NCBI GenBank assembly: GCA_943787795.1 | Contig: CALSNU010000005.1 | Coordinates: 160,001 to 224,000 of the forward strand | Reading direction: 5' to 3' | DNA: 64,000 bases | Source: an uncultured bacterium | GTDB taxonomy: Bacteria > Planctomycetota > UBA1135 > GCA-002686595 | Shown here: piece after piece, positions 9,316 through 48,869 of the stretch | How the letters are laid out: every line of letters begins with the position of its first letter | How positions within the stretch are numbered: the first letter of the stretch is position 1 | The notes under the pieces: model-generated | What the model saw: only the letters and a program-made list of their open reading frames with translations | Database searches by the model: none | What the model was told of the DNA's origin: nothing | Translations under genes and position numbers: made by a program

Positions 9316-10605
9316 TCACTGGAAGGTGACCTCGAGCCCGTCCGTGAAGTTCGAGGTTGTTGAGCCGCCTACCGCGTCACGGTGCCAGGCCTGGAAGTTC
9401 CAGGTGTCGCCGGGAAGGACGCCCACGGTGCCGAGGGCGGGGTCGGGGAAGGCGGTGAGGTCGGCCGGGATGGTGAACTCGCCCGCTGGACCGCTGTTCA
9501 CGATCTGCTGCTGGAAGCGCCCGACGGCGCCGCCGAGACAGAGATTGCCCTGGGAGCCGCCTGGGGTCGGGGCGAAGCCCTGCTGTCGAGACGTGATGAA
9601 GAACCCGAAGCTGTTGGCGGGTAGTCCGCTGGCCGTCAGGTTGAAGTCGTTCAGTGCGACAGAGGGCGACCCATCGGCGCCCATGGAACCCGCGGCGCCC
9701 GTGGAGTTCGGGTTGGCGGCGCAGTAGTTCGAGCCGAGGCCGCCGCCCGCGTACTCCACGAGGAAGCTGGTCGTGTTGACGTGGTTCTCCTCCGCGTCGT
9801 TCCACTGGCCGCTCCCGAACATCTCCGCGTAGTCCTCGGCGCCGCCGTTGGCTGCGTTGTTGTTGGGCTCGCCGGGGAACCAGTTGGTGAAGGTCGCATC
9901 GGTCCCGTCGATCCAGACCCAGCCGCCGTCGGGCTCGGAGTACTGGGGGTGGGTGGTGTCCTGGAAGAGTCCGACCCAGGGGCGCCCGACGGGCAGGTTG
10001 TTCACGACCCAGTCGAGATCGGCCTGGTCGGAGAGGACGGCGAGGCGGCCTGGCTGACCGAGCCAGACGAGGTCAGCGGCCCTGTCACGGGCCTGGGTCC
10101 AGGAGAGATTGTCGTCGACCAGCTCGTAGTAGCGGCCGTTGTTCGGGTTCAGGGCAGGGATGTACTCGGACAGGGTGAAGGTCCCCGTGCCGGTGCTCCC
10201 CACGGATCGAGAGCCAAAGCGGATCAGGTACTGCTGGCCCGCCGCTGCGGCGAATCGCACGTTCGAACCGATGTTGCAGTCGATCGCCGAGCAGGCGAGC
10301 TGCATCAGGTTGTTGCAGTCGTTGCCGTCATAGACGGCGACGCGCGTCTCGAGGGAGGTCTGGCCGCACACCTCCACGGTGACCCGGGCGTTGTTGGGCG
10401 CCGTCCAGAGGAACCAGACGTCCTTGCGGACGGGAAGGCCGTTGCAGTCGGAGAGGCCGGGGGTGGGCGTCGCGCTCGTGTTGTCGAAGGGGTGCGGCCC
10501 AAGGCCGGAGATGGGCTGGGCGTTGGCGCAGTCGTCCGCACCCTGGGCGAAGGCTCCGGAGACGGTGAGCGTGGCGAGGGCGAGCAGGTAGATCGAGCGG
10601 CGCAT
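9316..10605 (-). CDS. Secreted protein: PPC-like beta-sandwich + C-type lectin domain + shared C-terminal domain
   Basis: Signal peptide; DDCANA..DVWF module; CTLD motifs WVGL, WFPGEPNN, EDY and WND; YC..NSTG...FQAWHRD tail. Confidence 0.85.
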   Translation of the reverse strand: MRRSIYLLALATLTVSGAFAQGADDCANAQPISGLGPHPFDNTSATPTPGLSDCNGLPVRKDVWFLWTAPNNARVTVEVCGQTSLETRVAVYDGNDCNNLMQLACSAIDCNIGSNVRFAAAAGQQYLIRFGSRSVGSTGTGTFTLSEYIPALNPNNGRYYELVDDNLSWTQARDRAADLVWLGQPGRLAVLSDQADLDWVVNNLPVGRPWVGLFQDTTHPQYSEPDGGWVWIDGTDATFTNWFPGEPNNNAANGGAEDYAEMFGSGQWNDAEENHVNTTSFLVEYAGGGLGSNYCAANPNSTGAAGSMGADGSPSVALNDFNLTASGLPANSFGFFITSRQQGFAPTPGGSQGNLCLGGAVGRFQQQIVNSGPAGEFTIPADLTAFPDPALGTVGVLPGDTWNFQAWHRDAVGGSTTSNFTDGLEVTFQ

Positions 10606-39872: not shown

Positions 39873-40757
39873 TCAAGCCGCCGTTCGAACCGTCGAGGGC
39901 GTCGGGGTCCGGGCAGCGTCGAGGTCGGTGTGGGTGACGAGCACGAAGGCGCCGTCCTCGAGGTTCAGGGCCGTGGCGCGCCCGCGGAACGGGCGAGCCT
40001 CGCCGCCGATGCCCACGCGAGCATCGGCCGTGAAGGTGTGGCGCTCTCCGCGCAGGACGGCCTGGAGCTCCCGGAGGAACCGGTTGGCCCGCCCGTCACC
40101 GCTCTTGGCGGCCGCGGAGCAGACGGCCAGGTAGTCCGCGCCCACGCCGGTGCGCGACGGGTCGCCTCCGGCGTCCATGGTGAAGCGTCGCCAGGCGGCG
40201 TTCACGGCCACGATCCGGCCCTCGGTGTCGAGGACCGCGGCGTGCGCGGTGCAGTGCTCCAGGGCCTCGGTCAGGCGGTCGAACCGGCTCCCGGCCGGCA
40301 CGCTGAAGCCGGCCTCGGGAATGACGGTGGGGCGGACGGCCCCCTTGGTGACCTCGGTGGTGAAGGCGACCAGGACCAGGCGCTGGTCGCGGCCCATGAC
40401 GCGCTCGATGGTGGCGACGGTCCGGACGACTCCGCCCGTGCGGAGGGGGCGGTCGAACTCGAGTCGAGCCCGGTCCGCTCCGCCGGTCTGGATCTTCCTG
40501 ATCTGCGCGTGCATGGAGCCGGCCTCGCGGTTCCCGTTCAGCGCAGCCCGGCCCATGGCAGCCATGTAGTCCGCACCCTCACGGGCGTTCTCGAGCGGGA
40601 CCACATCCGTCTGGCGTGAGCTGCGGGACCAGGCGTCGTTGGCCTGGACGATGCACCCTGCCCCGTCGAGCAGCACGCAGCGGTCCGGCGTGGAGTCCAT
40701 GGCGAAGTTGGCCTCGGACAGGGTCAGGGTCTGCGAGTTTGATTTGGGTGCGGACAT
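39873..40757 (-). CDS. Stand-alone tandem PAS-domain protein
   Basis: Two copies of (L/V)LD..G.IV..N.AW.R....GADY(M/L)A; no kinase or GGDEF output domain. ORF is open from 40790. Confidence 0.75.
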   Translation of the reverse strand: MSAPKSNSQTLTLSEANFAMDSTPDRCVLLDGAGCIVQANDAWSRSSRQTDVVPLENAREGADYMAAMGRAALNGNREAGSMHAQIRKIQTGGADRARLEFDRPLRTGGVVRTVATIERVMGRDQRLVLVAFTTEVTKGAVRPTVIPEAGFSVPAGSRFDRLTEALEHCTAHAAVLDTEGRIVAVNAAWRRFTMDAGGDPSRTGVGADYLAVCSAAAKSGDGRANRFLRELQAVLRGERHTFTADARVGIGGEARPFRGRATALNLEDGAFVLVTHTDLDAARTPTPSTVRTAA

Positions 40758-40920
40758 GGTCGATGGGTTCCTTGGGTGCGGTGTCACCATCTGGGGTATC
40801 GGACTGATCCGCGGATCCCTTGAGCGGCGAAGCGGTCCGGCGGGAGCCCTTTGGCGCAGGTCGTCCCGAACGGGGAGCCAGGTCCCATCCTTGGTCCCAG
40901 CCGGTCCCTATGGGCTCCGG

Positions 40921-41020
40921 GTGGCGCCTCGGTGTGTCTCTGCGCGCCTCAGCCTGCGCCTGTGTACCTCCGTCCGCGCCTGTGCACCTCCGTCCGCGCC
41001 AGTGCGTCTCAGTGCGCCTC
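40921..41020. repeat. 10/20-bp periodic repeat overlapping the polA stop codon
   Basis: Decamers such as agtgcgcctc / agtgcgtctc / tgtgcacctc / cgtccgcgcc, all in register. Confidence 0.65.
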
Positions 41021-43726
41021 GAGCCAGTCGGCGCCCCAGCCGAAGTCCACCACGAGGGGGACGTCGAGCTCCACAGCATTCTCCATGGCGTCCTTGACCA
41101 TGGCGATGGTGGCGTCCAGTTCTCGCTCCGGGACCTCGAGCACCAGCTCGTCATGGACCTGGAGCAGGAGCTGTGCGGCGAGCTCAGACTCATCCAGGCG
41201 CTGGTCCAGCTTGATCATTGCGCACTTGATGATGTCAGCAGCGGAGCCCTGAACGGGGGTGTTGACCGCAGCGTTCTCCGAGGCCACGCGGGCCCGTTGG
41301 TTCGACGAGTTGATGTCCGGCATCTGCCGGCGGCGGCCCATGAGGGTCTCCACATAGCCTTGCTCTCTCGCGCCGGCGAGCACGCCGTCGATCCAGCCGC
41401 GCACGCTCGGGAAGGCGGCGAAGTAGCGGTCGATGAAGTCCCGCGCCTCCGGGACGGTGAGCCCCGTCTCCCGCGCGAGGCGCTGGGGCCCCATGCCGTA
41501 GAGCAGGCCGAAGTTGATGGCCTTGGCCTGGCTGCGCATGGTCCGGTCGACCATCTCGGGGAAGACGTCGAAGATCACCGACGCCGTGGAGGCGTGGATG
41601 TCCTTCCCGTCACGGAAGGCCTGGGCGAGCTTCTCGTCGCCGCACAGGTGGGCCAGGACCCGGAGCTCGACCTGGCTGTAGTCCGCCGCGAGGAGGACCC
41701 ACTTGCCGTGCTCGTCCGGCTCGCGCGGGACGAAGGCGGAGCGCAGCCGCCGGCCGCGCTCGGTGCGCACCGGAATATTCTGGAGGTTCGGATCGCTCGA
41801 CGCGAGCCGTCCGGTGGCGGCGACGGCCTGACTAAAGGAGCAGTGGATGCGGCCTGTCTTCGGGTTCACGAAGTTAGGCAGTGCGTCCACGTATGTGCTC
41901 TTGAGCTTCGCGACCTCGCGGTACTCCAGCAGGCGGCGCACGATCTCCACGTCCCCGTAGTTCTCGTTCAGGGTCGCCTGATCCGTGGCGTAGCCAGTCT
42001 TGGTCTTCTTGACCCGCTTGACGCCGGCCTCCTCCTGGATGCGGAGCTTCTCGAAGAGGATCGTCCCGAGGGCCTTCGGGCTGTTCACCTTGAGCCCCGG
42101 CTCTCCTGCCAACCGGCGGACGTCCTGCTCGGCGGCGTCGATGTCGCGCGTCAGCTCCTTGCCCAGCTCCTGGATGGCTGGGACGTTGAGCCGGATACCG
42201 CGCCGTTCCATCTGCGTCAGCACCCGGACCAGCGGCATCTCGAGATCGTGGAACAGGGGCTCGTTGTCGGTCTCCTTGAGCTCGACGGACAGGCGCTCAA
42301 AGAGGCGGTAGGTCACCTCTGCGTCCTCGCAGGCGTACTCGCCCACCACGTCCACGGGCACCTCGGCCATGGTGATCTGCTTCTTCCCCGTGCCGATCAG
42401 GTGCGAGGTCGGGATCTTGGTCATGCCCAGCTCGACCAGGGCCAGGTGATCGAGGTTGTGGCGGCGGCTGGACCCGTGGATGGTGAAGCTCGCCACCATC
42501 GTGTCGAAGGCGGGGGGGGGCACGCTGATCCCCTGGGCGCCCATGACCAGCGCGTCGTACTTCTCGTTCTGCGCGATACGGAAGAGCTCGGGGTCCGTCA
42601 TGAGCGGCCGGAGCCGGTCAAGGAGCGCTGGGGGGCCTCCCTCGAGAACCGGAGGGTCGAGGTTGAACGGCACATAGAACGCTCGCCCGGCTTCGCAGCA
42701 GAACGACATGCCGACGAGGTCCACCTGCAGCGCTGCGAGCCCGGTGGTCTCCGTGTCCCAGGCGAAGGCGCCCGCTGAGGTGAGCTCCGCGATCATCTGG
42801 TCGAGCTCGGCCTCGGTGCGGACGAGGACGTCCTCGCGGTCGCCGGCGCCGTCCACCTGGACGTCGCTGCTCATCTCCTCGGCGAGGCTGCGGAAGTCGA
42901 GGTCCTGGAAGATGCTCCGCAGCTCCGAGACGTCCGGCGTCGCCGGGGTGATCGACTCAAGGCCGCGCTCGAGGGGGACGGCCGTGTCGATGGTCACCAA
43001 CTCCAGGGACAGGAGGAGGTTCTCCCGGTCGTCCTCGAGCTTCTCCCGAGTCTTCCCCTTCACCTCCTCGATGCGCTCGAGGATGCCCGCGACGGAGCCG
43101 AACTCAGCGATGAGCTTCTTGGCCCCTTTCTCGCCGATCCCCTTCACGCCGGGGACGTTGTCGGAGGCGTCGCCCATGATCGCGAGGACGTCGATGACGT
43201 GGTCTGGCGTGGTACCGAACTTGGCCTCCACCTCCTCCACGCCCTCGATCACGAGGTCCACGCCAGGTTTGAAGATGTTGTGCAGCTGCAGACCCGGGTC
43301 CACCAGCTGCATGAGGTCCTTGTCCCCGGTGACGATCCTGACCTCGTGTCCGGCCTCGCGGGCGCGCGTCGCCAGGGTGCCGATGACGTCGTCGGCCTCG
43401 TAGCCGGGGATCTCGAACAGCTCGACGCCGTGCGCCGCGATGATCCTGCGGATGTCCTCCAGCTGCTCGATCATCTCCTCGGGGGCCCGCTCACGGGTCG
43501 CCTTGTATTCGGCGTAGCGCTCGTGTCGGAACGTCGGTCCCTTGGCGTCCAGCGCGACGGCCACCAGGTCGGGAGCTTCCTCGCGGAGGATCCGGCGCAG
43601 CGCCATGGTGAAGCCGTAGGTTGCGCCCGTGGGGCGCCCGTCGGGCGCGGAGAGGCCCGAGCGCATCATCGCGAAGTGCGACCGATAGGCGACGGCGGTG
43701 CCGTCGAAGAGGAAGAGTCGACCCAT
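41009..43726 (-). CDS. polA: DNA polymerase I
   Basis: 5'-3' exonuclease motifs (YKATR, EADDVIGTL, GDASDNVPGVKGIG), DTETT, ADYSQVELR, KAINFGLLYG and LQVHDEL. Confidence 0.97.
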   Translation of the reverse strand: MGRLFLFDGTAVAYRSHFAMMRSGLSAPDGRPTGATYGFTMALRRILREEAPDLVAVALDAKGPTFRHERYAEYKATRERAPEEMIEQLEDIRRIIAAHGVELFEIPGYEADDVIGTLATRAREAGHEVRIVTGDKDLMQLVDPGLQLHNIFKPGVDLVIEGVEEVEAKFGTTPDHVIDVLAIMGDASDNVPGVKGIGEKGAKKLIAEFGSVAGILERIEEVKGKTREKLEDDRENLLLSLELVTIDTAVPLERGLESITPATPDVSELRSIFQDLDFRSLAEEMSSDVQVDGAGDREDVLVRTEAELDQMIAELTSAGAFAWDTETTGLAALQVDLVGMSFCCEAGRAFYVPFNLDPPVLEGGPPALLDRLRPLMTDPELFRIAQNEKYDALVMGAQGISVPPPAFDTMVASFTIHGSSRRHNLDHLALVELGMTKIPTSHLIGTGKKQITMAEVPVDVVGEYACEDAEVTYRLFERLSVELKETDNEPLFHDLEMPLVRVLTQMERRGIRLNVPAIQELGKELTRDIDAAEQDVRRLAGEPGLKVNSPKALGTILFEKLRIQEEAGVKRVKKTKTGYATDQATLNENYGDVEIVRRLLEYREVAKLKSTYVDALPNFVNPKTGRIHCSFSQAVAATGRLASSDPNLQNIPVRTERGRRLRSAFVPREPDEHGKWVLLAADYSQVELRVLAHLCGDEKLAQAFRDGKDIHASTASVIFDVFPEMVDRTMRSQAKAINFGLLYGMGPQRLARETGLTVPEARDFIDRYFAAFPSVRGWIDGVLAGAREQGYVETLMGRRRQMPDINSSNQRARVASENAAVNTPVQGSAADIIKCAMIKLDQRLDESELAAQLLLQVHDELVLEVPERELDATIAMVKDAMENAVELDVPLVVDFGWGADWLEAH

Positions 43727-43817
43727 GACCGTGAGGCTACGGGTCGGGGCTCAGCGTTGCTCGCGCCCTCGCCCGGAAACCGGAAGCCCCACCGGGGAAC
43801 GAGGGCGGCGGGGCGCC

Positions 43818-43873
43818 GCCGTGTGGGCAAGCCCGTGTGGGTAAGGCCGTGTGGACAAGGCCGTGTGGGCAAG
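43818..43873. repeat. 14-bp tandem repeat x4, each carrying a DnaA-box-like 9-mer, upstream of polA
   Basis: tgtgggcaa, tgtgggtaa, tgtggacaa and tgtgggcaa at 43822, 43836, 43850 and 43864. Confidence 0.75.
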
Positions 43874-43968
43874 GGGGGACGGCGACTCGCGGGGAGAGCC
43901 CTGCCCTGCCGTGCCGCAGCTCGCCATGGGAGAAGCCGGTCTCGGTGAGTCCCGCTCGGCGAGATGAG

Positions 43969-44048
43969 CTCACCGCCCGTTCATCTCACAGCCGGGTCGA
44001 CTCACAGCCGGGTCAACTCACTGCCGGGTCAACTCACTGCCAGGTCAC
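43969..44048. repeat. 16-bp tandem repeat x5 derived from the 3' end of the endonuclease gene
   Basis: ctcactgccaggtcac (gene end with stop), ctcactgccgggtcaa, ctcacagccgggtcaa, ctcacagccgggtcga, ctcaccgcccgttcat. Confidence 0.85.
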
Positions 44049-45347
44049 CGACCAGGCGTCGGTGAAGTTGCTGGTCACCTGGCCGGCGACGGCGTCCCGG
44101 TACCAGGCCTGGAAGTTCCAGGTCTCGCCGATCACTGCGCTCACCGGACCGGTGGGCTGGGGCAGCGAGGTGAAGTCCACCGCGACCGCAAAGCTCCCGA
44201 AGAAGCTCGAGTTGAGGATCTGGCCGCCGACGACGCGGCCGATGTTGCCACCGAGGCACAGGTTGCCCGCGCTCCCGCCCGGGTTGGTGATGAACCCCTG
44301 GGTCTGGCTGCACAGGAAGAAGCCCGCGGACTGCGTCGGCAGCTGATTCGCGAGCAGCCGGAAGTCGTCGTTGGCGATGACGGCGCTGCCGCGGCCCTCG
44401 ATCACGCCGGGTTGCCCCGTGGAGTTGGACGCGGCGGGGGAGCAGTAGGCGGCACCGGGCTCACACAGCCCGGCGAACAGGCAGTCGACCCACTCTGGGT
44501 GGTCAACGAAGGGGTTGCGGTTCCCCTGAAACGAGGCCACGACGTCGTTGCGCGTCAGCTCGAAGGCGTCGACCGGATCGGAGTAGTGCCAGTCGAGGAG
44601 CACGGCGAGCCTACCCATGTACGCGACGGGCTCGTTCTGACCGGTATTCGAGGCGGCGATCTGGCCGGTGTTGTCCGTCAGGATCAGGTTCGGCTCGGAG
44701 ACCCCGGTGACGCCGTGGGTGCCGCCCTCGTAGCGCACGTCAGCGTAGAGCTGCGCTCGGGCGATATCTCCCTGGTTGAACACGTTCACCTGGAACGTCC
44801 CGTTGGTGAAGGAGCCTGACGTCCAGTTGGACTGGCCAGGGAAGACACCGCTGCCGCCGCCCACGCCGCCGTTGGAGTCGGTGGTGAGCTCTCCGCAGCC
44901 CGCGCTGCAGGCGCCAAATGGCTTGTTACTCCGGCTGGAGTTGTAGCCGTCGTCACACAAGAAGAGCATGTGGCAGTCGGTGAAGGGCATGTTGCCCGAC
45001 CCGTTGCTGGGGAACCCGTACGAGGTCGGCCAGCTGTGCTCGCGGTTGTAGAAGGAGTTCCCTCCGGATTGCCGGACGAAGCTGCGGTTCCGGTAGACGT
45101 CCAGGATGCGCGACGAGTTCGCGGGGTCGCGCTGCGCGACCCCCAGGATGTCCCAGGTGTCGGTGGAGCTGCTCGTGTACGGATACCGCGTGTGGTCGTC
45201 GATGACGGCGTGCAGCGAGCTGCGCAGCGACGCCGCGGTGCTCGTGTCGACGCTCGAGTAGTAGCCAGGGGGCGGCCCTTGCGCGAAGCCCGAGGCGGCG
45301 AGAACGACGATGGCGATGGGGAGGCCGGTGATCTGGGTGAATCGCAT
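44034..45347 (-). CDS. Secreted endonuclease I family (Bsn-like) nuclease + shared C-terminal domain
   Basis: Signal peptide, YNREHSWP, NSSRSNKPF, GDIARA.LY.DVRYEG and QGNRNPFVDHP, followed by the YC..NSTG...FQAWYRD tail. Confidence 0.9.
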   Translation of the reverse strand: MRFTQITGLPIAIVVLAASGFAQGPPPGYYSSVDTSTAASLRSSLHAVIDDHTRYPYTSSSTDTWDILGVAQRDPANSSRILDVYRNRSFVRQSGGNSFYNREHSWPTSYGFPSNGSGNMPFTDCHMLFLCDDGYNSSRSNKPFGACSAGCGELTTDSNGGVGGGSGVFPGQSNWTSGSFTNGTFQVNVFNQGDIARAQLYADVRYEGGTHGVTGVSEPNLILTDNTGQIAASNTGQNEPVAYMGRLAVLLDWHYSDPVDAFELTRNDVVASFQGNRNPFVDHPEWVDCLFAGLCEPGAAYCSPAASNSTGQPGVIEGRGSAVIANDDFRLLANQLPTQSAGFFLCSQTQGFITNPGGSAGNLCLGGNIGRVVGGQILNSSFFGSFAVAVDFTSLPQPTGPVSAVIGETWNFQAWYRDAVAGQVTSNFTDAWSVTWQ

Positions 45348-45473
45348 GCTGGTGGACCGCAGGAGGCGGGGTCCAAGAGTAACGCGGCGGGGCCGCCTTC
45401 CCGCTGGAAGACGGCCCCGATCCTGCGCCTGCGCCCCGAGTTGAGTCGGGACGGGGCATCCTCGGTCAGCGGA

Positions 45474-46652
45474 TCAAAGGAACGCGATCTCGAGACCGTT
45501 GGTGAAGTTCGAGGTCGCGGACCCAGCGACAGCGTCGCGGTGCCAGGCCTGGAAGCGCCAGGTCTCACCAGCGGCAACGGTCACGAACCCGGTGGGCTGG
45601 GGGACCTGGGTGAGATCAAGGGCGAGCGAGAAGGCCCCGGTGGTCCCGGAGTTCTTGATCTGCCCGGCGCCGACGTAGCGCCCGATCGACCCGCCGAGGC
45701 AGAGGTTGCCGCTGCTGCCGCCGGGGTTCGCGACGAACCCGCTGTCGAGGCTGGCGAGGAAGAAGCCGAAGGAGTTGACGGGGAGGCTCGATGCCTCAAG
45801 CGTCAGGTCGTTCGAGGCTGCGAGGGGCGTGCCGCTCGCGCCCAGGGCGCTGATGCTCCCCGTGCTGTTGTTGTTCGCCGAGCAGTACGGCGTGCCGACG
45901 CTGCCGCTGCCGCCGCAGGAGCCCGCGGAGGCCGTCGTCGTGCAGCTCGTCGTCGGGTTGATGGCGTTCGGCGACGGGTCGGCGTACGGGGGGTTCGGGT
46001 TGCCGTTCGTCGAGAAGTTGACGAACACGTCCGTGCACCACTCGCCGGGGCAGCCGCCGTCGCGGATGATCCCGGAGGGGAGGAAGGAGCCGTCCGGCCC
46101 GAACTCGGGAGCGCCGTCGTAGAACACGTCGCCGGCGTCGCCGTCCCAGAAGGCCACGGCGTCGAGGAGCTCGACGTCCATGTCCGTCGCGATACGGGTG
46201 GTCAGGGAGCCGACGGGGTCGGAGATGTCGGTACCCGCCCAGGTCTGGATAATGTCCTGGCGCTTGATCGGGTCCGGCACGTTGACGAGATAGATCGTCG
46301 CGCTGCTGTTCTCGAACATGTTGTCGCCATAGGACGCGTTGTCGATGTCGCCGGGGAAGGCCGTGGCGGCCTCCGAGCTACCGAGAACGTAGAACTCGTT
46401 CGTGAAGACGTCGCCCGCCAGGTCGTAGGCGAAGTCGAGCGTGCCGACGCCGCCGGTCGCGCCGGCGGGGTCACCCTCGACGACGAGGACCATGAGCCCG
46501 TCGGTGGACTGACCAGGGAGCCCTTGGATCTCGACGTACTCCTGGTCGACGCCGGAGGTCGAGATGCGGACCTCGGTCATGACCTGGGACTGGGCGATGC
46601 TCGCGAAGGCGAGGGTGCCTGCAACGTGGACGAAGTTCTTGGAGAGTTTCAT
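45474..46652 (-). CDS. Secreted acidic protein (lamin-tail-like N-domain) + shared C-terminal domain
   Basis: ATG 46652 begins the signal peptide MKLSKNFVHVAGTLAFASIAQS; TEV....DQEYVEI motif; YC..NSTG...FQAWHRD tail. Confidence 0.78.
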   Translation of the reverse strand: MKLSKNFVHVAGTLAFASIAQSQVMTEVRISTSGVDQEYVEIQGLPGQSTDGLMVLVVEGDPAGATGGVGTLDFAYDLAGDVFTNEFYVLGSSEAATAFPGDIDNASYGDNMFENSSATIYLVNVPDPIKRQDIIQTWAGTDISDPVGSLTTRIATDMDVELLDAVAFWDGDAGDVFYDGAPEFGPDGSFLPSGIIRDGGCPGEWCTDVFVNFSTNGNPNPPYADPSPNAINPTTSCTTTASAGSCGGSGSVGTPYCSANNNSTGSISALGASGTPLAASNDLTLEASSLPVNSFGFFLASLDSGFVANPGGSSGNLCLGGSIGRYVGAGQIKNSGTTGAFSLALDLTQVPQPTGFVTVAAGETWRFQAWHRDAVAGSATSNFTNGLEIAFL

Positions 46653-47058
46653 GGGGGGAGGTCCGGGACCAGTTGGAGAGCGCGAGTCAGAAGGAAGCGT
46701 GGCGCGACGTGGAGGCCTGCCGTGCAGGGCAGAGAAGCCGTCCCGAGAAGCGTCGCGATCGGAGCCCGAGAGCCCCGGCACGACAGAATTCGCCAACGAG
46801 GATAAGGATCGCCCTGGAGCGGACGATGAAGAAAGACAACTCAATCCTGCGGGGGTGCCGCCCGTGTGTCGAGTCGGGGCGTCCCCGGATTTCCGCCTCA
46901 CGGCTGGCCGTGTCTGATCGGGAAGGGGATTGTGGGCTCGGGGCCGTACGGAAGTGTCTCCTTGCGAGACAGGTGCGCCCCTCTCCTGTCTTCCGATCGC
47001 GCCCCAAGACCCCCGCACGCGTCAGCTGGCCCCACCAAGGATCCACGCGCTCAAGCCC

Positions 47059-48105
47059 ATGATGGACGACCAGCAGCCTCCCGTACCCACCGCCCGCGCG
47101 CTCCAGGGAGGGGTCCTCATGGGCCTCGCCAATCTCGTCCCCGGGATCAGCGGCGGGACGATGATCCTCGCGATCGGCCTCTACGAGCAGTTCATCGCCG
47201 CCGTGGCCGACGTCTCGAGGCTCCGTCTCAAGCGCTCCTCTGTTCAATTCCTCACCGTCATGGCGGTGGGACTCGGGGCCGCGGTGGTGATCTTCTCGGG
47301 GGTGGCTGTGCTCCTCGTGACGGAGTACCGGCCGGTCATGTACGCGCTGTTCATCGGCATGACGCTCGGCGGCGCGCCGGAGCTCTGGCGCGAGTGCCGT
47401 CCCCTTCGACCGGGGACCGTGGCCGCCGTGGCTGTCGGCGTCGCGGCCATGGCTGCGTTCGCGTCGCTCGGAGGGAGTGCCCCATTGCAGGCGACGATCC
47501 CCGTGCTGCTCCTCGTCGGAGCCGCCGGAGCGAGCAGCATGATCCTCCCCGGGATCAGTGGTTCCTACGTCCTCCTCGTGCTCGGGATGTACGACACGGT
47601 CGTCGGATCGCTCTCGTTCAGTCGCTTGAAGGAGAGCCCCGTCGAGTCCCTCTCGATCATCGTCCCCGTGGTGCTCGGCGCCGTCCTCGGCATCGCGCTC
47701 CTCTCCAACCTCCTCAAGGCGCTGCTCCAGCGTTTCGCGGCGCCCTCCCACGGTGTGCTGCTCGGACTCCTCCTGGGATCGGTGTTGGGGCTCTACCCGT
47801 TCCAGCAGCCGGTACACCCCGAGCTCGCGACCCGAGACGTCCGCAAGGCGATCGTCTCCGTGGTCGTGGAGCAAGAGCCCGTGGAGCAGGTGGCTGCCCG
47901 CGTCGAGGCGGTCGACGCCAAGGACCTGTCGGTCTACGCCAGCAGGTGGGAGGGGCAGTCGAAGGGGGACCTCAAGCGCGCCGGGCTGGCGCTCGCACGC
48001 TTCCGTCCGGACCTCGTCCAGGTCGCCGGGGCGGCGCTGCTGTTCCTCCTGGGATTCGCCGTCACCCGACGCCTCGGGCGCGGGGGCCGGTCGGCTGCAT
48101 CCTGA
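47059..48105 (+). CDS. DUF368 family membrane protein (undecaprenyl-phosphate translocase-like)
   Basis: MGLANLVPGISGGT and MILPGISGSYVLL signature repeats. Confidence 0.9.
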   Translation: MMDDQQPPVPTARALQGGVLMGLANLVPGISGGTMILAIGLYEQFIAAVADVSRLRLKRSSVQFLTVMAVGLGAAVVIFSGVAVLLVTEYRPVMYALFIGMTLGGAPELWRECRPLRPGTVAAVAVGVAAMAAFASLGGSAPLQATIPVLLLVGAAGASSMILPGISGSYVLLVLGMYDTVVGSLSFSRLKESPVESLSIIVPVVLGAVLGIALLSNLLKALLQRFAAPSHGVLLGLLLGSVLGLYPFQQPVHPELATRDVRKAIVSVVVEQEPVEQVAARVEAVDAKDLSVYASRWEGQSKGDLKRAGLALARFRPDLVQVAGAALLFLLGFAVTRRLGRGGRSAAS

Positions 48106-48305
48106 GGCGTCCTGCTCGGCCGGGGCCTGGCCATCACCTGACTCGACGGATGGGGTACGGCGCGCAGGACTCGCCCGCATCAGGGTCGACGGGCGCACGG
48201 GATCTTCGCTCACCCGGGCCACTCGAGTCCTTCGCTGCCCTTCCAGCGAGCGGGGAATCGAAGGAACTGTCGCGTCGACGGCCGGGTCTGCCGCAAAATT
48301 CGGCC

Positions 48306-48869
48306 ATGCGACCGCTCCTCCGAATGACCCTCCGCCTTGCCCCGCTCCTGCTCCTCGGCGCCTGCTCTTCGACCGCGACCACCGTCGAGACCTTCAGCGA
48401 CCCAAGGGACGCCACGGAGGGCCTGGTTGCGGCGCTCGAGGCGGACGATGTCGCCGAGGCCAACAGGATCTTCGGGCTCTACGCCCGCTCGTCCGTGCTC
48501 CGCAACTCGGTCTTCTATGCCCTTGTCGAGGCGGCGTCCGGCGAGTTCTTCGCGGGCAATGACGCCAGCGGCCGACGCCTCGTCGAGTTCGCGCAGGCGA
48601 ACTTCCCGAGGGCGGGCTACGAGAACGCCGACGCGCTGGAGGCCGAGCTGCGCGCGGGGCTGGGCGAGGGACTCGAGGTGGTCGAATCCGCCTACGCCAA
48701 CGCCACCGCAGCGCTGAAGGCCCTGCAGGAGGTTCAGGACGCCATCGACAACGAGGAGACCCTGCTCGCCGAGGAGCGCTTCAACGCCTTCGTCCGGACC
48801 TGGAACGGGGAGCCCGCTGAGCTTCAGGCTGACGTCGACCGGATCAAGAAGTTGCTGGCGGACGACTGA
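48306..48869 (+). CDS. Hypothetical helical lipoprotein
   Basis: LLLLGAC lipobox after ATG 48306; this is the coding 3' part of ORF 46866..48869. Confidence 0.7.
   Translation: MRPLLRMTLRLAPLLLLGACSSTATTVETFSDPRDATEGLVAALEADDVAEANRIFGLYARSSVLRNSVFYALVEAASGEFFAGNDASGRRLVEFAQANFPRAGYENADALEAELRAGLGEGLEVVESAYANATAALKALQEVQDAIDNEETLLAEERFNAFVRTWNGEPAELQADVDRIKKLLADD

Follow-up and report, generated by a model that had tools for sequence, protein, structure and literature searches.

A shared C-terminal domain in the window

Why do three secreted proteins with unlike cargo, encoded within a single 64,000-nucleotide stretch of planctomycete DNA (here the window), end in the same domain? A first-pass annotation read this domain as a candidate sorting or surface-anchoring module. 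Our results support that reading, and both a sorting tag and a docking domain fit them: the domain (~138 aa, hereafter the tail) matches no characterised family, occurs in 104 copies in the source genome and is rarely internal or cytoplasmic.

Sequence and profile checks recovered all three modules on the minus strand where they had been reported (Table 1). The motifs, the YC-x4/5-NSTG spacing and the three closing strands (LEVTFQ, WSVTWQ and LEIAFL) agree with the original description. The other two copies are 59% and 55% identical to copy 3. Sec-type signal peptides are predicted on all three proteins by a home-made heuristic. Two of the three cargo labels held, the lectin (Lectin_C) and the nuclease (Endonuclease_1); the lamin-tail label of the third did not, as its cargo has no Pfam or NCBIfam match at E≤1. 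The copy-3 ORF spans 45474-47018 (-), with the ATG at 46652 as its likely start. Contigs from RNA runs give low, even cover across positions 40000-48500 of the window.

Table 1. Tail copies, their genes and the domains of those genes (window positions).
Feature	Position	Strand	Basis
Copy 1, terminal Ig-like tail, 139 aa	9319..9735	-	profile search, alignment
Copy-1 gene, 429-aa secreted protein: signal peptide, galactose-binding-like domain, C-type lectin, terminal tail	9316..10605	-	sequence, Pfam
Copy-1 gene, Sec signal peptide, 20 aa, AFA|Q	10546..10605	-	sequence, home-made heuristic
Copy-1 gene, GBD_T9SS_assoc-like domain, PF23759, E 3.8e-5, under cut-off	10177..10536	-	Pfam
Copy-1 gene, C-type lectin domain (Lectin_C), PF00059	9778..10053	-	Pfam
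Copy 2, terminal Ig-like tail, 140 aa	44037..44456	-	profile search, alignment
Copy-2 gene, secreted endonuclease I-family protein, 437 aa, terminal tail	44034..45347	-	sequence, Pfam
Copy-2 gene, Sec signal peptide, 22 aa, GFA|Q	45282..45347	-	sequence, heuristic
Copy-2 gene, Endonuclease_1 domain, PF04231, E 2.8e-29	44493..45230	-	Pfam
Copy 3, terminal Ig-like tail, 140 aa; the copy modelled, pLDDT 97.7	45477..45896	-	profile search, AlphaFold
Copy-3 gene, secreted protein, 392 aa from ATG 46652; cargo without known family	45474..46652	-	sequence, Pfam, NCBIfam
Copy-3 gene, Sec signal peptide, 20-22 aa, Gln at +1	46587..46652	-	heuristic

The tail family in the source genome

An HMM built from the three copies matched 99 ORFs in the source genome (G000; 4.71 Mb, 8 contigs, 70% G+C, 84.9% complete), most of them at E<1e-30, so the resemblance is not due to chance. 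The iterated profile converged on 104 ORFs with one domain each, and a broader profile, extended with distant terminal versions of the tail, added four ORFs at E<1e-5 and one weak match. Our own gene caller predicted 3482 genes, which include 101 of the 104 tail ORFs. With 93 members, the tail is the largest shared C-terminal family in G000 (the next has 20). In an alignment of 100 copies, pairs have a median identity of 40%.

The tail had been described as always terminal, and this is nearly so: 103 of 105 matches (E≤0.01) stop within three residues of the stop codon, and one of the two non-terminal matches is only partial, leaving a single true exception in G000, along with 3 among 269 database proteins. 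In the true case (G000:C6:243720-244898) a cytochrome-like CxxCH domain of 111 aa comes after the tail; the database proteins P0011 and P0038 have an extension of the same length (111 aa). The two cysteines that had been called invariant are present in 88 and 97 of 100 copies genome-wide and are often absent from distant families.

By eye, the ends of four further signal-peptide proteins (G000:C4:371546, C2:765609, C3:48985 and C4:709578) resemble more divergent tails, scoring below or near the profile thresholds. Several carriers that lack a signal peptide are short, frameshift-like ORFs directly behind signal-peptide genes. Five signal-peptide genes end just before such a short tail ORF (G000:C2:668818, C2:551262, C1:674820, C1:317971 and C6:8270), and these split pairs look like frameshifts, arising from assembly error or decay.

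Carriers are probably exported proteins with diverse cargo

The expected co-occurrence with signal peptides was found: 78 of 101 carriers have one, versus 497 of 2129 soluble controls (Fisher p = 1.6e-28), as called at the model start by the home-made heuristic, which favours Gln at +1. Gln follows the predicted signal-peptidase site directly in 60 of the 78 carriers versus 143 of the 497 controls, a difference to be read with the heuristic's preference for Gln in mind. Gln at +1 recalls the Q-rule of the Bacteroidota. Anchors of their own are scarce among the 101 carriers (three lipoprotein calls, and two proteins with a TM segment).

Pfam cargo domains were found in 49 of 96 further carriers scanned, among the best five matches per protein. 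They comprise proteases (M12, M14, M43, S8 and trypsin), GH16, lectins, FG-GAP propellers, the nuclease, amidase, sulfatase, esterases, haloperoxidase-like, MauG-like and GBD_T9SS_assoc domains. When compared by BLAST, 90 cargos fall into 44 components. Their composition is nonetheless alike, rich in S/T/N and poor in K/R/E: S+T+N minus K+R+E exceeds 0.05 in 81 of the 90 cargos versus 42 of 496 other signal-peptide proteins and 30 of 1560 proteins without a signal peptide. Flagellins and porins score like the cargos, and because of this shared composition we can only infer that the carriers are located outside the cell. The MauG-like cargo of one carrier contains two CxxCH motifs, which fit export after periplasmic maturation. 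Another carrier (G000:C2:379081-380343) joins an Amidase_3 peptidoglycan amidase to the tail and, if exported, could be bacteriolytic.

Distribution among the Planctomycetota and in databases

The narrow profile matched 25 of 301 planctomycete genomes and the broad profile 66, of which 61 have high copy numbers (9-14 of 14 scored) and five have one or two matches; 235 genomes have none. The 61 high-copy genomes span 16 families, and among the 30 families tallied the tail is all-or-none (8/8, 6/6 and 6/6 in some; 0/16, 0/17 and 0/11 in others). A quick RpoB tree covered 31 genomes: Saltatorellus ferox, a single genome from each positive family, and 14 negatives. Its 17 positives group together on one side of a branch with an SH-aLRT support of 96. 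S. ferox Poly30, whose RpoB is close to that of G000, has the tail in 150 of 150 scored, with 431 candidates; the accessible part of the Saltatorellota preprint (10.1101/817700) places the S. ferox strain in OM190. As for the five low-copy genomes, the match in G170 and one in G201 are weak, internal and likely false; the other four matches look real but are close to contig starts, where contamination or transfer is possible.

In protein databases the broad profile matched 37,508 clusters (50% identity) at E≤0.001. The tail is terminal in 266 of 269 proteins fetched and tandem in none, and the named matches are planctomycete proteins, either ‘hypothetical’ or named after their cargo. Tails also occur in MAGs labelled Gemmatimonadetes (7 tails) and Paracoccaceae (at least 150 close copies, with a match in each of the 150 scored); these may be due to contamination, mislabelling or binning artefacts. 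The literature searched contains no description of the domain in the portions accessible to us, including those of 10.1101/817700, PMC11032199, 10.1101/2023.06.07.544157 and 10.64898/2026.10.26.761892; the protein-family tables of PMC11032199 could still include the tail as an expanded family.

A predicted Ig/Fn3-like sandwich

The AlphaFold model of copy 3 (98-row alignment) is all-beta, with a pLDDT of 97.7 and a pTM of 0.91, and the tail is thus confidently predicted to be an Ig/Fn3-like sandwich. A distant member has the same predicted strand order (pLDDT 96.7), and the profiles of near and distant tails, which have nine rows in common, align at 99.9% probability. Structural matches of the model are generic Ig/Fn3 sandwiches (Z≤8.5). 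The Fn3 domain of PelI is among the top matches (Z 8.4, rmsd 2.4, 86 residues aligned), tied with the unrelated Ig folds of Nir2, PECAM-1 and CHIR (Z 8.1-8.5). The top 50 structural matches contain no T9SS CTD or FlgD chain, which excludes nothing.

As in the first-pass annotation, no named family could be assigned. The tail matches no Pfam or NCBIfam model at E≤1, nor any at E≤0.05 in a further search; the best hit in a sequence search of the PDB has an E of 0.26, and Foldseek returned no match at E≤0.001, with ester-bond adhesin and neocarzinostatin among the weak ones. The closest ESM Atlas clusters are nameless planctomycete proteins (0.97-0.98), and the nearest named ones are CHRD clusters (0.80-0.82). 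A predicted tail homodimer scored 0.00, which is uninformative either way.

Across the 16 families identity falls to ~20-30%, with conserved Q/D/N/G residues; a Gln is the single invariant residue of the broad alignment. The two main cysteines covary, both being present in 355 of 438 non-redundant copies, neither in 63 and one only in 20, and p-values for such covariation are overstated since the copies share ancestry. The last conserved motif lies 9-10 residues before the stop in 352 of 395 copies. The final residue varies (P, Q, L, N), and a terminal cysteine covaries with another that lies either at position 40 or immediately before the domain. The C-terminus is therefore probably tethered within the fold, whereas a classic PDZ ligand has a free end.

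Exchange of tails on homologous nucleases

Among the 120 homologues most similar to the nuclease in the window, 88 end in the tail. Sorting and docking modules of known types fill the same slot in some of the 32 homologues without it: IPTL-CTERM in two above the cut-off and one just below (among the 18 scanned), and a dockerin (PF00404) in two of the 32, some dockerin bearers being named Phycisphaerae. Inspected by eye, about nine of the 32 appear dockerin-like, five IPTL-like and three distant tails, with other or no tails on the rest.

Tail sequence follows the genome. In 74 homologues with 60-72% cargo identity, the median tail identity to the window nuclease tail is only 29%, while 91 tails on unrelated cargo in G000 have a median of 48%; 54 of the 74 orthologue tails fall below this same-genome median. 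Judged by these sequence comparisons, the tail tracks genome rather than cargo and acts like an address peculiar to each genome, placed where homologues have known sorting or docking modules. Gene conversion could instead account for the likeness of tails within a genome.

Comparison with known sorting and docking systems

Membership of the tail was rejected for the T9SS CTD (no match to the models), for PEP-CTERM (all-beta model, no TM helix) and for SLH (no match, all-beta, single copy). The closest behavioural parallel is the T9SS CTD of the Bacteroidota (Por_Secre_tail, TIGR04183), together with the FlgD-Ig tails of other FCB lineages, which likewise combine Sec export with a single terminal Ig-like domain. 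These also share the very high copy number on many unrelated extracellular cargos, and GBD_T9SS_assoc cargo. In contrast, the CTD model has 72 positions versus 130-140 aa for the tail, which is disulfide-bearing and has no match to the CTD HMM. T9SS components were likewise not detected in tail-rich genomes: SprA (PF14349) in S. ferox, G142, G032 and G098 (a Gemmatimonadetes-labelled control was positive), PorV (PF19572) in G000, S. ferox, G142 and G032 (control positive), and TIGR04183 tails in four tail-rich genomes including S. ferox (the control MAG was positive and itself has 7 tail matches). Searches of G000 for SprA (PF14349) and PorU (C25) gave no match, but no control matched either. 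In its behaviour the tail resembles a T9SS CTD, but on these results it falls outside the T9SS.

PEP-CTERM, IPTL-CTERM, GlyGly-CTERM and MYXO-CTERM signals are also terminal and many-to-one, and IPTL-CTERM is interchangeable with the tail on the same nuclease; they consist, however, of a short motif, a TM helix and a basic tail rather than a folded beta-sandwich without a TM helix. GlyGly- and MYXO-CTERM proteins get to the surface via the T2SS, according to the accessible text of 10.1101/2023.06.07.544157. Exosortase (PF09721) was not found in G000, the sole genome covered, at 85% completeness (control positive). Dockerins (PF00404; GC-type NF041540) resemble the tail in being terminal on secreted cargo and in occupying the same slot on homologous nucleases, but the tail is all-beta, with no dockerin HMM match or calcium-loop repeat. 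SLH domains are helical repeats, unlike the single-copy, all-beta tail, which has no SLH match.

A precedent of another kind comes from T2SS substrates. In the part of PMC12369372 available to us, the Ig-fold of VesB is a graftable, EpsC-PDZ-dependent T2SS signal, and the Fn3 domain of PelI binds the PDZ domain of OutC. Like these determinants, the tail is an Ig/Fn3-type sandwich on Sec-exported proteins, and G000 has a T2SS and GspC-like PDZ proteins. There is no sequence similarity, and VesB- and PelI-type determinants serve one or few substrates whereas one homologous domain is found here on ~100 proteins per genome.

Secretion machinery in tail-bearing genomes

The T2SS cluster of G000 (G000:C3:436321-444281) encodes GspD, E, F, G (GspG above the cut-off) and minor pseudopilins; the genome also encodes a second secretin and a prepilin peptidase. 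For two TM-HR-PDZ proteins GspC is the best NCBIfam match, far below the cut-offs; no GspL/M gene was identified in G000. A GspC-like profile matched 60 of 61 high-copy genomes; of the 240 without high-copy tails, 109 matched as well, and GspG-family matches occur in 52 of 52 panel genomes, so T2SS co-occurrence is uninformative. Phylogenetic profiling is in any case confounded, because the tail-bearing genomes form one clade. On sequence evidence, almost all tail-rich genomes have a T2SS route at their disposal, yet profiling does not single it out. In many loci the GspC-like genes adjoin a PilT/PilU-type ATPase, and their products may serve type IV pili.

A clade-linked pilus/secretion locus (G000:C4:4739-26979) contains PilC, PilB, PilT, an OmpA-domain protein, a prepilin peptidase, a 444-aa protein without family, two giant Ig-like lipoproteins (1168 and 1087 aa), a tandem GspC-like PDZ pair and a second PilT-type ATPase. 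The TraF_2 barrel, considered as a PorV-like partner, was rejected since it shows no co-distribution (3/28 tail-rich versus 9/23 other genomes). Genes recurring beside tail genes reflect only orthologous synteny, at most 7 loci, and a search for an internal-repeat scaffold gave one row and is uninformative.

A barrel and giant-protein screen of G000 (85% complete) found no large unknown or SprA-sized barrel; the barrels present are BamA, TamA-like, porins, TonB-dependent, DUF481, DUF3187, TraF_2 and a few small family-less ones. Two large proteins have no Pfam or NCBIfam match and no terminal barrel strand: a 2155-aa signal-peptide protein (G000:C1:2891-9358) and a 1909-aa protein with a hydrophobic N-terminus (G000:C2:595368-601097).

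What the tail may do

We tentatively propose, with somewhat less than even confidence, that the tail is a lineage-wide, portable, folded C-terminal export tag and that the T2SS is its reader. Cargo that is folded and disulfide-bonded, and that in one carrier binds haem, would need a route from the periplasm to the outside, and the T2SS is the sole such route found; this, with the precedent of VesB and PelI, is why we suggest the T2SS. Cargo would enter the periplasm through Sec, with removal of the signal peptide, and the T2SS would pick up the folded protein, the tail putatively being recognised by GspC and afterwards kept or removed. A new cargo that gained the tail would join the secretome. 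Possible but rather doubtful is non-covalent surface docking, dockerin- or SLH-like, in which the cargo is exported otherwise and then kept on the cell through binding of its tail to a scaffold protein or glycan at the surface. The dockerin-like tails in the same slot of the nuclease fit docking as well as export, the near absence of lipid and TM anchors on carriers is consistent with it, the C-terminus, apparently tethered within the fold, hints at a stable domain that is retained, and Ig repeats of adhesins are similar in fold (6xi3, Z 8.2). The 1168-aa Ig-like lipoprotein, detected with a single query in 18 of 28 tail-rich versus 1 of 23 other genomes, could be the scaffold, though the same query missed it in 10 of the 28. 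Binding modules are usually also found in tandem or at either end of proteins; the tail is never tandem and almost never internal, which argues against docking, as does the lack of cohesin (PF00963) in five tail-rich genomes, with positive controls. Export and docking are compatible roles rather than exclusive ones.

An undescribed, clade-specific outer-membrane translocon or sorting machine analogous to the T9SS is an unlikely reader of the tail, even with the CTD-like combination of Sec export, a single terminal Ig-like domain, 100 to several hundred copies per genome and all-or-none presence by family. GBD_T9SS_assoc domains in cargo of genomes without detected SprA, PorV or T9SS tails would fit such a machine, and the portion of PMC11032199 available to us reports, from gene-flux work, 417 families unique to the Saltatorellus clade. 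The familiar or small barrels of the G000 screen, the distribution of TraF_2 and the lack of recurrent neighbours beyond synteny argue against it. We consider it very unlikely that the tail has a purely passive part, in folding, in stability or as a spacer, without a dedicated partner, and was spread by intragenomic recombination. Gene conversion alone could suffice to make tails within a genome more alike than those of orthologues, and fragments and frameshifted carriers exist, but 16 families keep the tail at a fixed terminal position with conserved residues despite their low identity, it takes the place of known sorting and docking tails, and homologous nucleases exist without it. Setting the reader aside, there is about an even chance that the OM190/Saltatorellus clade sends most of its secretome via one homologous, portable, folded tag, which would be either the first universal modular T2SS signal or the signal of an undescribed T9SS-analogous system.

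Most extracellular-type proteins of a widespread and poorly understood clade, which has cultured strains and an unusual cell biology, appear to be marked by a very large, nameless family. For annotation, the tail serves to predict the secretome of OM190 genomes. If the T2SS reads it, the old question of how that system chooses its substrates could be approached with hundreds of naturally occurring versions of a single signal, and the tail could be grafted onto other proteins for export; otherwise it is a sign of some export or anchoring system not yet known.

Other features of the source genome

Although the T9SS was not found, a secreted sortilin-like/PDZ protein (G000:C4:422692-426534) has a FlgD_ig domain near its end. 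Two genes for 365-aa porins (G000:C2:285430-286527 and C2:287458-288555) lie 2 kb apart with identical start and end sequences, and a close paralogue is found at G000:C6:405313-406443; the Porin_O_P match of these porins is weak.
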